From NCBI GenBank assembly GCA_944391745.1, contig CALXUS010000003.1, positions 27,732-91,731 on the forward strand: a DNA stretch of 64,000 nt, given 5' to 3'. The notes below the pieces were generated by a model that worked only from the letters and a program-made list of their open reading frames with translations, did not search any database and was not told the DNA's origin. Position 1 is the stretch's first letter. Each line of letters opens with the position of its first letter. This document shows positions 33,640 to 47,335 of this stretch, one piece after another. Made by a program: the position numbers and the translations under genes. Source of the stretch: an uncultured Clostridia bacterium (GTDB lineage Bacteria; Bacillota; Clostridia; TANB77; CAG-508).

Positions 33640-33809
33640 AAATAAAGGGTTCACTTAAAAAGTGAGCTCTTTTAATTTGTCTAGTAGGAATAGTTTTAAG
33701 ATAAAGATATAAATAAAATGTATATCTCCATAAAATACACAACTGACTAATTTATTAGATTTTGAAAAAAATATATATTGCAGTTACAAAACATAAAAAA
33801 TAACTTTAA

Positions 33810-33838
33810 TTGACTTTTTTCATAATTCGTAGTATTAT
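33810..33838 (+). promoter_or_regulatory. promoter TTGACT-17-TATTAT in front of large-protein copy 1
   Basis: TTGACT 33810-33815, TATTAT 33833-33838. It is near-identical to the promoter block at 40760-40788. Confidence 0.5.
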
Positions 33839-33937
33839 GTAAATATAACCTTGCAACAATATTAAATATTTACTAGATATAAATAAAACTTAAAAATGAA
33901 CTTCTTTCTTGGATTAAGGATATTTAAGGAGTATATA

Positions 33938-43973: not shown

Positions 43974-45149
43974 ATGGAATACAGTAAATTGGGTAAAGAA
44001 TTAGAAATATATACAACAGTAGATTATATAGGAAAAGGATTTCCAATCATACTTCCAAATGGTGCAAAAATGATGAAAATACTTCGTGAAATGGTGGAAA
44101 GTGCTGAAGAAAAAAGAGGGTATTCTGTTGTAAGAACACCTAGTGCGTCTAGAGCAGAAATATATATGATAGAAGATAGATGGGAACAGGAAAAAAACAA
44201 TATTTTTACTATAGAAGATGAAGAAGAGCAAAATTCTATTGTTTTAAGACCTTATGTGAGACCATTTCATTGCAGTTTGTATGCTACAAAACAGCATAGT
44301 TATAAAGAGTTGCCTATAAAATATGGAGAAACTTCAACAGTTTTTAGAGATGAACCAACTAGCAAAATAAGAGGATTAACATGTATGAGACAATATTCAT
44401 TTTCTGATGCTAGTATTTTCACTTCACCTGAATTACTTGAAAAGATGTTAGTTGAGTCTGTAGAATTAGAGCAATATTTTATGGAAAAATTAGATTTGAA
44501 TGTCGAATATAAAATATCAACATGGAATACAAATGCAAAAGAAAATTACATTGGAACGATACAAGAATGGGATTTGTGTGAAGGGTTAATGGAAAAAGTC
44601 TTAAAAGATTTAAACATAAAATATGTGAAAAATCAAAATGCAATGATGTATGGTCCAAGTATCCAAGTATATTATAATGAAAAATTATTAGCAAAAATAG
44701 AAATAGATTTTGAAATTACACATAGATTTGATTTAAAATATACAGATAAAGATGGGCTAGAAAAAATTCCTATATATATTCATAGACAAGATTTAGGCTG
44801 CTACGAAAGTATGCTTGCAATATTAATAGAAAAATATCAAGGAGAATTTCCTACATGGATAGCTCCAGTGCAGTGCATTATAATTCCAGAATATGATGAA
44901 TATATAGATTATGCTAATGAGTTAAAAGAAAAATTAAGAGACAGAAGAGTTAGGGTTTCGGTAGATTTTACAGATAAAGAAGTAGATGAAAAAATAGAAA
45001 AAGCTAAGAAATTTAAAATTCCTTATATAGTTTTAATAGGAAAAGAAGAGTATAATAGCAATAATGTTTTAGTTATGAGATATGGAAAAAAAGAAACAAG
45101 ACATTACACTTTAGATGAAGTTATGCAAAGGTTTGAAAGGAGAAAATAA
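43974..45149 (+). CDS. truncated ThrRS-like class II aaRS paralogue (catalytic core plus anticodon-binding domain only) with substituted active-site residues
   Basis: It starts exactly at the catalytic-domain boundary (MEYSKLGKELEIY versus DHRKIGKDLNLF in thrS). It aligns with in-window thrS through LRP....P.H, HSYK.LPI, FR.E, DA..F, IHR..LG and FP.W.AP.Q. ATG 43974 after AGAGGAAAAG. Confidence 0.8.
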   Translation: MEYSKLGKELEIYTTVDYIGKGFPIILPNGAKMMKILREMVESAEEKRGYSVVRTPSASRAEIYMIEDRWEQEKNNIFTIEDEEEQNSIVLRPYVRPFHCSLYATKQHSYKELPIKYGETSTVFRDEPTSKIRGLTCMRQYSFSDASIFTSPELLEKMLVESVELEQYFMEKLDLNVEYKISTWNTNAKENYIGTIQEWDLCEGLMEKVLKDLNIKYVKNQNAMMYGPSIQVYYNEKLLAKIEIDFEITHRFDLKYTDKDGLEKIPIYIHRQDLGCYESMLAILIEKYQGEFPTWIAPVQCIIIPEYDEYIDYANELKEKLRDRRVRVSVDFTDKEVDEKIEKAKKFKIPYIVLIGKEEYNSNNVLVMRYGKKETRHYTLDEVMQRFERRK

Positions 45150-45151
45150 AT

Positions 45152-47335
45152 TTGAAAAACGATGTTCTAGAATACATAGGACTAGATTTAGAAAATATAC
45201 CTCAAGTTTTATTAAATTATAGTCCAATTCATTTTAGTGATTTTAGTAATTCCAATGAATATAGAGTTTATGATTATGTTTCTATTCATGATTTAGAAAT
45301 ACTTGTTACACCTTTAGATAGAACTGATGAATTAAGAGAAAGATATAAACAAGCAAAGCCTTTGTCCGAATATTTTCAAACTGATGATATGAAAATGAAA
45401 TATATACTAGAAAAGGCTCTTGATTCAGCATCTGTAGAAGAAATAAAAAAGCTAGAAAGACTTCAAGAAAAACTTAATGATATTCCATATTTAGTTAAAT
45501 ATGATAAGAATTATTTATGGCAAATCTACTATTCTAAAACTGAAAATAAATATTTTATGCTTTTTCCAGCAAATGAAGGTGAATCATCAGTTTTATTTTA
45601 CATTATTAAGAAAAAACTAGAAAAGGAAGACACAAAAATATTTGTACCAGTTAATAAAATGGATTATTCTGGATTTTTATTGGATTCATCTAAATTAAAT
45701 GATTTAGAAAATTATATTTGGCTTTTTACAAATGAATGGCCCAATATATATGAAGTATGTAATAAATATTTGTATATTATAGGAAAAACAAAAGTAGATA
45801 AAATTTTTGGGACATATTTTAGAAATGTATATACTTCTAAAGAAGATGCCGAAAATTTTTATATGACATTAAAAGCATTATTTATTTTAACTACTGAAAC
45901 TAATTATAAATATATATTTAATCCTTATGTTAATGAAAAAGGTGAGTTGGAACTTGAGTTTAAAAATGAAAATTCTAATTCTGAATTAATTACAGTTCAA
46001 AACTTGGCGGATTTTGTAGACAGGCAGTTTGAATTTCAAAGCTTAAGAAAAAAAGATTTAGAAGAAGAAATTGTACGTAATGAAGAAATTTTAAAAGAAT
46101 TAAAAGAATATGTAAAAAAGCAAAATGATATATATGTAATGCAAGAAAAGCAAATTGTAATGTTTTTAGATTGCAAAAAGAGTTTCTTCAAAAAATTAAC
46201 TTACTTTTTTAAATCTAAAAAGTTTGTAATGCCTAAATTAGATAATAAAATAGATAAAAAATTAAAAGATGAATTAGGAGCGAATTCTTTAGAGGATGAA
46301 TTATCTAAAAAGAATGAAATAAATTTAAATGGTTCATATACAATAAAAGATTTAGTTTCAGCATTTAATAGAGCAAATGAAGAGGAAATAAAGGCAAGGG
46401 CTGTTCGTGGGGACATAAAAGCATTAAAATTAAAAAAAGAAAACTATGCTAGAAAAATAGAAAATGCAAAAAAATACATAGATGAAATAGAAAGCCATAA
46501 GAAAAGCATATTTGAATTTTGGAAATTTAGTAATAAAGATGAACTTCCTGCACTTAGTGATGGAGAAGGTAGCAACAGTAATGAAACCAAAACTAGTAAT
46601 AACTTAGATAGAGATGTACTTGGAACAATGGCTGATAGTTTGCAAAGACAAAAGTTAAGTGATGAAGAAATAAATGCTTTATATTTATTTTATGTGATGC
46701 CAGAAACCTTTAACCGCATAAGTAAAACTTATGCGAAAAATAAAATTGAGGACACTAAAAAAATTGAAAATGATATATTAGAGGGCTTGAAAAATAAAAC
46801 TTCCAAAAGGTCACTTGATAACCTTATAAATGATTATAGAATCGTAAAAAAGATAAATTCAAAAGAGCATAGAGAAAATGAAAGAAATGAAATAGCTATA
46901 TTAAGAATAAATGAGAATACCACAGTAGAAGAATTTAAAGATAAAATAGTACATTTTCAAAACGAGCTTGAAAGTGCTTATAATAAAATTTATTCTATAA
47001 CAAACATGCCAGTATATATCAAAAAAAGTGATGCCCCAAATGAGTTTATTTTAGGAGATATTAATCCAGAAAATTTGATTGGTGAAAATACTGAAGGACA
47101 AGAAATAGAGCTTGTAAAAATAGACTTAGGTAAAGAGGCACATGTTTTGTACTTATCTAATATTGTATTTTTTGATAATCAAAATAAAACTTTACCAATT
47201 GGAATGGACTTGTCTAGTAAGGTGGTAATAAAACTAAATGAAACTCCAAAAGATTACAAGTATAAAAAAGTAATTTACATTTTTAATAAAGAAAATAATT
47301 TTGATGTTAAGCAAAAGAAAATTGTTATATACTGA
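45152..47335 (+). CDS. hypothetical 727-aa protein with central coiled-coil, translationally coupled to the ThrRS-like gene
   Basis: The TTG start lies 2 nt after the upstream stop. AGGAG lies in the last codons of the upstream gene. No family recognised. Confidence 0.65.
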   Translation: MKNDVLEYIGLDLENIPQVLLNYSPIHFSDFSNSNEYRVYDYVSIHDLEILVTPLDRTDELRERYKQAKPLSEYFQTDDMKMKYILEKALDSASVEEIKKLERLQEKLNDIPYLVKYDKNYLWQIYYSKTENKYFMLFPANEGESSVLFYIIKKKLEKEDTKIFVPVNKMDYSGFLLDSSKLNDLENYIWLFTNEWPNIYEVCNKYLYIIGKTKVDKIFGTYFRNVYTSKEDAENFYMTLKALFILTTETNYKYIFNPYVNEKGELELEFKNENSNSELITVQNLADFVDRQFEFQSLRKKDLEEEIVRNEEILKELKEYVKKQNDIYVMQEKQIVMFLDCKKSFFKKLTYFFKSKKFVMPKLDNKIDKKLKDELGANSLEDELSKKNEINLNGSYTIKDLVSAFNRANEEEIKARAVRGDIKALKLKKENYARKIENAKKYIDEIESHKKSIFEFWKFSNKDELPALSDGEGSNSNETKTSNNLDRDVLGTMADSLQRQKLSDEEINALYLFYVMPETFNRISKTYAKNKIEDTKKIENDILEGLKNKTSKRSLDNLINDYRIVKKINSKEHRENERNEIAILRINENTTVEEFKDKIVHFQNELESAYNKIYSITNMPVYIKKSDAPNEFILGDINPENLIGENTEGQEIELVKIDLGKEAHVLYLSNIVFFDNQNKTLPIGMDLSSKVVIKLNETPKDYKYKKVIYIFNKENNFDVKQKKIVIY

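Follow-up and report, generated by a model that had tools for sequence, protein, structure and literature searches.

The window analyzed here is a stretch of 64,000 nucleotides from an uncultured Clostridia bacterium (assembly GCA_944391745.1, contig CALXUS010000003.1), and the object of this study is the interval of about 13.6 kb which separates in it the gene of threonyl-tRNA synthetase (ThrRS), thrS, from the convergent gene spoIVA. This interval is occupied by three tandem copies of a gene encoding a protein of approximately 980 aa (hereafter the large gene and the large protein), a type III toxin–antitoxin (TA) module toxIN, a ThrRS-like gene (thrL) and a gene for a protein of 727 aa (p727) (Table 1). 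The original prediction, made from the letters of this DNA, had united all these elements into one functional unit, namely an accessory, RNA/tRNA-centred and plausibly defence-type locus. Here, we describe the elements themselves, their arrangement and divergence in related genomes, and the explanations which may account for their neighborhood.

Table 1. Positions of the genes and signals of the thrS–spoIVA region in the window (ORF, open reading frame)
Feature	Position	Strand	Characteristics
thrS T-box leader	31450..31648	+	Rfam RF00230, 60 bits, E 4e-11; below the gathering score of 93
thrS, full-length, 643 aa from ATG (ORF opens at 31666)	31708..33639	+	Relatives: TGS, tRNA_SAD, class II core and anticodon-binding domains
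thrS terminator-like hairpin	33644..33672	+	13-bp stem, then T-rich tail
toxN 3′ remnant (about 33773-33806), then copy of the large-gene promoter TTGACT-17-TATTAT (33810-33838)	33773..33838	+	
Large-family copy 1	33938..36869	+	One frameshift near 36500-36535; ORFs of 865 and 123 aa; tblastn 55% identity to copy 3
Large-family copy 2	36894..39912	+	10-bp deletion at ~37012, 1-bp deletion at ~37116; longest ORF 37132-39912, 926 aa
toxIN promoter TTGACA-18-TATAAT	40013..40042	+	Promoter scan, 12/12 matches; invariant in L089, L090
toxI antitoxin RNA array, two 39-nt direct repeats	40102..40179	+	Repeat search; conserved in L089, L090
Palindromic terminator-like hairpin between toxI and toxN	40185..40219	+	Hairpin scan; 16-bp stem
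toxN, ToxN/AbiQ-family endoribonuclease toxin, 165 aa	40245..40742	+	Pfam, PADLOC, gene call in L001
Promoter-like site TTGACT-17-TATTAT before copy 3	40760..40788	+	Also duplicated before copy 1
Large-family copy 3	40856..43807	+	Sole intact copy, 983 aa
thrL, putative ThrRS-derived pseudo-synthetase, 391 aa	43974..45149	+	Catalytic-core and anticodon-binding-domain folds
p727	45152..47335	+	Starts 2 nt after the thrL stop
Terminator hairpin between convergent p727 and spoIVA	47385..47413	.	Detected on the minus strand, between both stop codons

The toxIN module and the large genes

The toxIN module, which had been expected between copies 2 and 3, is readily recognized there. ToxN matches Pfam PF13958 with E 1.9e-40 (139 bits versus a cut-off of 25) and the PADLOC model AbiQ with E 7.9e-40, and the start at 40245, giving 165 aa, is the more likely one. 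The two toxI repeats are 72% identical to each other; they were found by a direct-repeat search, were not detected by Tandem Repeats Finder (score threshold 30) and matched no Rfam family. The defining criteria of type III loci include a palindromic terminator that separates the repeats from the toxin, and within the toxIN family the repeats range from 31 to 62 nt and from 1.9 to 5.6 copies (Blower et al., 2012; PMC3401426). All features of this definition, i.e., toxin, repeats, hairpin and a perfectly matching sigma-70 promoter, are present here, the length and number of the repeats lie inside these ranges, and the module appears to be a genuine, complete and working-looking type III (AbiQ-type) system. 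No terminator was predicted between toxN and the promoter-like site preceding copy 3. The same succession of toxN, promoter and large gene is encountered before copy 1, where the region of the toxN remnant and the duplicated promoter aligns to 40643-40788 save for an internal deletion, in accord with the assumption that a decayed 3′ end of toxN lies in front of copy 1 and that this arrangement occurs twice.

All three tandem paralogues of the large gene are present as proposed, but only copy 3 is intact, copies 1 and 2 being frameshifted, with both deletions of copy 2 falling in its first 230 nt. Assembly errors were considered as a source of these frameshifts and rejected: the truncated ORF of copy 1 (P0073) recurs at 99% identity on four other contigs and the 926-aa ORF of copy 2 (P0024, on two contigs) was found again at 99% identity on another one, so the lesions are genuine. 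At the DNA level the three copies are 85–99% identical over the first ~1.5 kb and 30–70% over the remainder, and the closest pair among them switches along the gene, which suggests recombination among the copies. The same polarity characterizes the whole family, where the N-terminal half, ~500 aa of helical character, is conserved and the C-terminal half is hypervariable: 48 columns remain invariant among members with no more than 30% identity, and almost every one of these columns falls within the N-terminal ~590 residues. The family is small, since its profile, run by HMMER exhaustively against 1.84 billion representative proteins, returned 53 clusters only, many of them fragments; ORFs of 970–1000 aa stay intact in many genomes at 60–90% identity.

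Neither the large protein nor p727 was assigned by library, profile and fold searches to any known family, as had been anticipated from the lack of recognizable motifs. For the large protein, there were no matches in Pfam, NCBIfam, PHROGs and PADLOC, nothing significant in the comparison of sequence profiles with the PDB, and no match in phage and plasmid collections (tblastn) or in IMG/VR viral contigs; the Pfam scan of the window copies together with their homologues gave a domain, a BspA-type leucine-rich repeat, in one distant member (P0390). The AlphaFold2 model of copy 3, built from 57 homologues, is mainly helical (predicted local distance difference test, pLDDT, 80; predicted template-modelling score 0.71), and Foldseek found for it in the PDB and BFVD coiled-coil noise alone (E >0.04). 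Transmembrane segments and signal-like hydrophobic stretches are absent, and the protein is predicted to be compact, helical and cytoplasmic. No small ORF of the immunity-gene type follows any of the large copies in the window.

Two observations on the large genes may be added. A split form composed of overlapping ORFs of 699–709 aa and ~300 aa recurs in at least 12 protein clusters (for example, L002 13535-16523 and L004 4719-7686; proteins P0025-P0036) and may be a stable form with two genes or the product of an inherited frameshift, as opposed to decay at random. A palindrome with 8-bp stem, GATGTGTC...GACACATC, is identical in copies 1 and 2 (34028-34050 and 36984-37006), where it belongs to the conserved 5′ coding region and is flagged by the scan as terminator-like on the minus strand.

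Arrangement and divergence of the locus among relatives

The survey of relatives was anchored on p727 with one genome per GTDB species, and the proteins of the window were mapped by tblastn onto 82 loci (designated by L numbers). p727 was found in at least 256 species, all of them uncultured gut Clostridia, e.g., Clostridium sp. CAG:793 and metagenome-assembled genomes (MAGs) from animal and human gut. Among 63 informative species loci, thrL adjoins p727 in 15, p727 is immediately preceded by thrS, thrL being absent, in 29 more distant species (with a gap of at most 700 nt in 21 of them), and neither arrangement is observed in 19. Thus, a gene of the ThrRS family directly precedes p727 in 44 of the 63 species, and wherever thrL is present in these loci (15/15) it lies 8–461 nt upstream of p727. 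The order thrS, thrL, p727 and convergent spoIVA is kept in about 15 species. Twelve of the 15 loci with the thrL–p727 pair carry no large gene, the thrS–thrL–p727–spoIVA loci devoid of it including L008, L010, L011, L013, L017 and L025.

In the map of 82 loci, large genes were detected in L001, L002, L004, L012 and L016 only, further ones being found in L087-L089; among the mapped loci they are thus confined to the closest relatives of the window and always located between thrS and thrL. The content of this slot is variable. It harbors one large copy and no TA module in L012, L016 and L088, toxIN followed by a large gene in L089 and L090, a large gene, an MNT–HEPN pair and another large gene in L087, and a large gene, MNT, a split large gene and MNT–HEPN in L002 and L004, so that the prediction of a recurrent “TA module, then large gene” arrangement holds with toxIN in L089 and L090 and with HEPN–MNT in L087, L002 and L004. 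Sister genomes have none, one or two large copies in the slot. In somewhat more distant species thrS and thrL are separated by 55–250 nt or by another insert, as exemplified by the YhgA-like transposase of L008 and the alpha-amylase of L027; in L013, where the gap is 57 nt, a hairpin is present and a T-tail on the coding strand is not. The expected polymorphism at the thrS–spoIVA junction is, therefore, observed both in the presence of the cassette and in its copy number. Distant members of the large family occupy unrelated sites, namely next to release-factor genes (three loci), at der/plsY and beside an integrase and a RhuM/Fic gene, and no thrL, p727 or toxIN was found there.

Several features of these loci are worth recording. 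The release-factor-adjacent large genes lie in L085 (6942-13329), L094 (1659-8145) and L093 (4583-8464), and in two of the three the large gene begins ~10 nt past the stop codon of the release factor. The spacing between thrS and the large gene, which is 16 nt in L002, L087 and L088, resembles this distance, and large genes may repeatedly come to lie immediately after translation genes with high expression. In L091 (4740-10059), a family member is located between a small tyrosine-recombinase gene and a gene with a RhuM/Fic domain, that is, in a mobile or defence-like context. Contigs of three MAGs (L003, L005 and L007) begin 320–480 nt upstream of thrL; breaks at this place are expected if repeated large copies disrupt short-read assemblies, and the cassette is therefore probably under-counted.

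Sequence divergence separates the same two parts of the interval. Synonymous divergence (dS, Nei–Gojobori) between the window and the large-carrying genomes L089, L002 and L016 amounts to 0.09–0.23 for thrS and 0.24–0.48 for the large gene, and to 1.15–1.26 for thrL, 0.70–0.91 for p727 and 0.76–0.80 for spoIVA, being in the same genome pairs 3–10 times lower for the first two genes than for the last three. The ratio of nonsynonymous to synonymous divergence (dN/dS), given as the range over all five genomes compared (i.e., with the addition of L008 and L013), is 0.007–0.107 for thrS, 0.39–0.64 for the large gene, 0.07–0.10 for thrL, 0.16–0.30 for p727 and 0.06–0.07 for spoIVA. In L008 and L013, which have no large gene, dS of thrS is 0.6–0.73, and the low values obtained elsewhere are thus not merely a consequence of codon bias.

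Comparison of DNA identities leads in the same direction. Between the window and L002, L012, L016 and L087-L089, flanking core genes are 80–86% identical and the T-box together with thrS 93–98.5%, the high identity being limited to genomes carrying large genes; for the T-box leader taken separately it is 95–99% in such genomes. In L089, identity to the window is 95–97% for toxIN and the initial 1.9 kb of the large gene. The thrS gene has an intact zinc triad and intact motifs 2 and 3; its T-box leader, which lies outside the interval originally delimited yet within the exchanged block, also precedes thrS in L010, L013 and L040, and every locus checked has one. Judging by these values, the block from the T-box and thrS into the cassette has recently been exchanged between species, and thrL, p727 and spoIVA have diverged along with the genomes as expected for vertical inheritance; an essential synthetase allele thus appears to move horizontally along with accessory cargo. 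In L002, an extra TA pair (MNT and HepT; 6967-7639) is inserted between nth and the thrS T-box, so variable DNA is found on either side of thrS, and the counterpart of this stretch in the window (31019-31400) does not align to relatives.

As to the surroundings, the window has a GC content of ~27% and the segment is chromosomal, the neighbors of the interval being the housekeeping genes mfd, aspS, a PASTA kinase gene, nth, thrS, spoIVA, dnaG and sigA. Apart from the elements described, positions 33600-47400 contain no ORF of 100 aa or longer, which agrees with the predicted absence of integrase and transposase genes. Base composition was assumed to be as AT-rich as the backbone; this is nearly so, although the part with the paralogues is slightly more AT-rich (GC 0.23–0.25 versus 0.26–0.30 in the flanks). 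Elsewhere in the window, an ORF of 1114 aa (18362-21706) combines a papain-family protease domain with four Big_3 Ig-like repeats and probably encodes a surface or secreted protease.

The ThrRS-like gene and p727

The product of thrL retains the class II core (PF00587, E 1.2e-21) and the anticodon-binding domain (PF03129, HGTP, E 6.6e-14) and aligns with residues 236–630 of Staphylococcus aureus ThrRS (1nyq). The N-terminal TGS and editing (tRNA_SAD) domains are missing, the match beginning at position 164 of the TIGR00418 model, and the score of 289.9 bits is under the thrS equivalog cut-off of 383.65. The predicted truncation and active-site substitutions are confirmed, and the substitutions are conserved across 22 thrL orthologues. 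The position of the zinc-binding Cys is taken by R, K, A, M, Y, E, S or Q; Ser stands in 22/22 for the first zinc-binding His, inside the motif SDASIF, and the second His is mostly retained; YGPK is turned into YGPS in 21 of the 22, with loss of the equivalent of Lys465; the motif-3 Arg is changed to Ser or Asn, likewise in 21; and a deletion of 5 aa is common to all. Motif-2 FRxE is kept. With zinc ligands, the Lys465 equivalent and the motif-3 Arg lost, thrL cannot encode a canonical threonine-activating enzyme and, as far as sequence allows one to judge, represents a conserved pseudo-synthetase which is catalytically dead.

The constraint acting on thrL is on par with that of spoIVA (see dN/dS above), and 130 of 301 columns of the catalytic domain are at least 95% conserved among orthologues. 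At equal distance, identity of orthologues is 53–57% in the domain with the catalytic fold and 36–47% in the anticodon-binding one, where 13 of 49 thrS-invariant positions are kept. Thus, the notion of an RNA/tRNA-centred locus, based in part on the retained anticodon-binding domain, stands as far as the presence of this domain is concerned, but the domain is the least conserved part of the protein, and tRNA binding by thrL is plausible, though residue conservation gives no support to it. The Rfam scan revealed no further T-box ahead of thrL. The possibility that thrL is what has recently been left of a displaced thrS was also considered and rejected, as it has 33% identity to thrS and is conserved across 22 species. 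The search of literature on synthetase-like proteins in anti-phage defence returned no papers.

As predicted, the 727-aa ORF directly follows the ThrRS-like gene. The p727 family has more than 3000 database members, none of them named and none with a Pfam domain. No match was obtained for p727 in Pfam, NCBIfam, PHROGs and PADLOC, no weak match recurred in the Pfam scan of 39 members of its alignment, nothing significant came from the comparison with PDB sequence profiles, and tblastn against phage and plasmid collections gave no match; profile–profile comparison indicates that it is unrelated to the large family (probability 2%). The protein has no transmembrane segment. Its model (pLDDT 76) consists of an N-terminal alpha/beta domain (1–280), a coiled-coil hairpin of ~60 residues and an alpha/beta region at the C-terminus; the tip of the hairpin, though conserved, is modelled poorly. 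ADP-ribosyltransferase toxins are the sole fold matches with high Foldseek probability (CDTa, 6x6x, E 6.4e-3; C3larvin, 4tr5, E 1.2e-2), with low template-modelling scores of 0.14–0.45 and root mean square deviation of 8–12 Å. C3-like ADP-ribosyltransferases usually have ~38 residues between S-T-S and E-x-E. The invariant R57, S128 and E142 of p727 do not form the R/STS/ExE pattern: S128 is outside any S-T-S, E142 follows 14 residues later and the second acidic position is not invariant, so that the resemblance of the modelled N-terminal domain is an unverified lead. The CorA-like nature of p727, suggested by “GMN” in the consensus of distant orthologues and by weak CorA fold matches, was rejected since there is no transmembrane segment.

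The most invariant motifs of p727, QIxxFLxCKKSFFxK..Y (residues 334–360, about 46151-46231) and HKKSIFEFWKFxxKDELP (449–468, about 46496-46555), are both basic and aromatic, lie in regions not placed by AlphaFold2 (pLDDT <50) and are candidate partner-, membrane- or nucleic-acid-binding segments. Given the frequent position of ThrRS-family genes upstream of p727, co-transcription of this neighborhood under T-box control is possible. In a remote relative, L040 (14684-14754), the skipping-rope small RNA RF02924 (50.5 bits, above the gathering score) was found downstream of p727.

Origin of the interval and its relation to known systems

The data presented favor, with moderate confidence, the interpretation of the 13.6-kb interval as a junction of two unrelated modules, an accessory cassette and an old thrL–p727 pair. 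The cassette (33.7–43.8 kb) fills the slot between thrS and thrL with toxIN and tandem large copies and has passed among related species along with the T-box and thrS. By analogy with its family, the toxIN promoter would drive two ToxI repeats followed by a leaky terminator and then the ToxN endoribonuclease, which would process ToxI RNA, be held inactive by it and, once transcription stops, e.g., upon phage infection, be released, resulting in abortive infection. Copy 3 would be transcribed from its own promoter, with read-through from toxIN being possible. From its context we infer that the large protein may be conflict or defence-type cargo, and it could act as a variable sensor or effector.

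The second module (43.97–47.3 kb) would be old and vertically inherited within an order-level clade of uncultured gut Clostridia. p727 would ancestrally follow thrS, and in one sub-clade a copy of the ThrRS gene would have become thrL, which shed the N-terminal domains, two zinc ligands, the Lys465 equivalent and the motif-3 Arg and stayed beside p727. The product of thrL is suggested to be a non-catalytic partner or regulatory subunit of p727, comparable with HisZ, possibly linked to the status of threonine or tRNA-Thr via co-expression with thrS. Both genes of this pair appear from their distribution and purifying selection to be lineage-core rather than island cargo. No new mechanism is indicated so far.

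Some facts weigh against this interpretation. The defence role of the large protein rests on TA modules, on the integrase and RhuM/Fic genes of L091 and on fast evolution; two of the three large copies are broken, and dN/dS of 0.4–0.64 is compatible with decay as well. The partnership of thrL and p727 rests on adjacency and the 2-nt spacing, and p727 has no ThrRS gene nearby in 19 of the 63 species. No terminator is predicted in 40788-47385 save for a weak site at 42928, so that copy 3, thrL and p727 may share a transcript and thus be co-expressed with the cassette. Finally, codon bias could explain part of the low thrS dS, although L008 and L013 argue otherwise.

Among the alternatives, the most serious, albeit unlikely, is that the large genes serve no present purpose in the cell and are kept, as selfish or junk paralogues in decay, by linkage to essential thrS and by addictive TA modules, toxIN being the only functional part of the cassette. 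The frameshifts of two copies out of three, seen with the same lesions in other assemblies, the abundance of fragments in databases, the elevated dN/dS (0.39–0.64) and the interleaving of large copies with TA modules are in line with it; yet intact ORFs of 970–1000 aa persist in many genomes, the invariant columns survive among members 30% identical, the structural model is confident, and dN/dS stays below 1 with the N-terminal half strongly conserved.

We assign a slightly lower, likewise small, chance to two further readings. According to the first, the dead synthetase and the conserved coiled-coil protein of 730–800 aa, ancestrally co-transcribed with T-box-controlled thrS, may form an undescribed ThrRS-derived module which senses or acts on tRNA-Thr/threonine status across an order of uncultured gut Clostridia. 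According to the second, the array may consist of an expression copy and silent donors: copy 3 would be expressed, and the frameshifted copies would feed gene conversion that diversifies the C-terminal half of a defence sensor acting inside the cell, and the array would be carried from species to species by the essential thrS allele.

It is improbable that the entire 13.6 kb serves as a single system of abortive infection or defence, with joint action of ToxN, the large proteins, the ThrRS-like protein and p727 on RNA/tRNA. Copy 3, thrL and p727 do succeed one another on the same strand, separated by short gaps which contain no strong terminator, and RNase-type TA modules (ToxN and HEPN) recur beside large genes in the slot, but at least 12 species have thrL–p727 with neither large gene nor toxIN, at least 29 have p727 without thrL, and homologues of the large gene are found elsewhere without thrL or p727; together with the 3–10-fold difference in dS and the lack of PADLOC matches for the large protein, thrL and p727, this leaves the single-unit model already largely refuted by co-occurrence data. 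Therefore, the claim of one functional unit made in the original prediction fails: its genes are not found together as a set, thrL and p727 being mostly free of the large gene and distant large genes of thrL, p727 and toxIN, and the two parts differ in their dS histories. The accessory nature assigned to the locus is retained for its left part and withdrawn for thrL and p727. Similarly, the defence-type assignment is justified for a genuine abortive-infection-type toxIN, but no match to the models of PADLOC-DB 2.0 (E <0.05) extends it to the other three proteins.

Still less probable is the view of thrL as a second, stress-type active ThrRS (such as Anabaena T2, Bacillus subtilis ThrZ or an antibiotic-resistant copy) with p727 as an unrelated neighbor: its domain architecture is that of editing-less active ThrRSs, FRxE of motif 2 is retained and purifying selection is strong, but thrL has lost, as a change fixed among its orthologues, two of the three zinc ligands as well as the equivalent of Lys465 and the arginine of motif 3, its score is under the equivalog cut-off, and the only ThrRS duplicates named in a 2022 review of aminoacyl-tRNA synthetase duplications, T2 and ThrRS-L, are active ones (PMC9437257). 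Equally poor prospects await the idea of large proteins as polymorphic toxins or effectors, with a delivery N-terminus, a variable toxic C-terminus and silent copies as its reservoir, since the conserved and variable halves, the mosaic identity and the tandem array with truncated members suit it, but signal peptide, transmembrane segment, LXG, Rhs or other trafficking domain, any toxin domain in Pfam and a small immunity gene after any copy are all lacking in a protein predicted to be compact, helical and cytoplasmic.

If the two-module interpretation is true, thrL as a non-catalytic partner of p727 would be a ThrRS-derived addition to the short list of synthetase-derived regulatory proteins and would provide a handle on an unannotated family of 3000 members from abundant but uncultured gut Clostridia. 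Joint exchange of thrS, TA modules and orphan cargo represents a clean case of accessory DNA moving without integrase, by homologous recombination through a housekeeping gene. More generally, contiguity on the same strand is weak evidence for a functional unit, and it is comparative synteny and dS that divide the “island” in two.

Each part of the interval has recognizable counterparts among known systems. With Pectobacterium ToxIN and Lactococcus AbiQ, the toxIN module shares a toxin of 165 aa of the ToxN family behind a terminator, a 39-nt repeat array and a consensus promoter; it differs from known type III toxIN in having just two repeats, the second 72% identical to the first and neither matched in Rfam, in its chromosomal location, in being followed with no predicted terminator by a promoter and an orphan gene of ~980 aa, and in tandem duplication of the entire toxN–promoter–gene unit. 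Defence islands and TA-rich hot spots are resembled by the variable slot, filled with toxIN, HEPN–MNT, a transposase-like gene or nothing, and by the signs of horizontal exchange at the slot of the window; in contrast to them, the interval has neither integrase nor attachment repeat, the exchanged block takes in essential thrS with its T-box, and the main cargo is an orphan family missing from PADLOC. Among the pseudo-enzymes derived from class II synthetases, the closest analogue of thrL may be HisZ, a HisRS-like regulatory subunit of ATP phosphoribosyltransferase, as both are class II core paralogues without aminoacylation residues, and thrL is under purifying selection and encoded beside a fixed partner gene. 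Unlike HisZ, however, thrL is ThrRS-derived and keeps the anticodon-binding-domain fold, and its neighbor and putative partner p727 belongs to no known family and has no evident metabolic link. The composition of catalytic core and anticodon-binding domain without TGS and editing domains, along with the presence of a second ThrRS-type gene in the genome, relates thrL to the editing-domain-less crenarchaeal ThrRS-cat and yeast mitochondrial MST1 and to the duplicated bacterial ThrRSs Anabaena T2 and B. subtilis ThrZ. All these are active enzymes in which the Cys-His-His zinc site and motif 3 are preserved, whereas thrL is devoid of this zinc site and of the motif-3 Arg.

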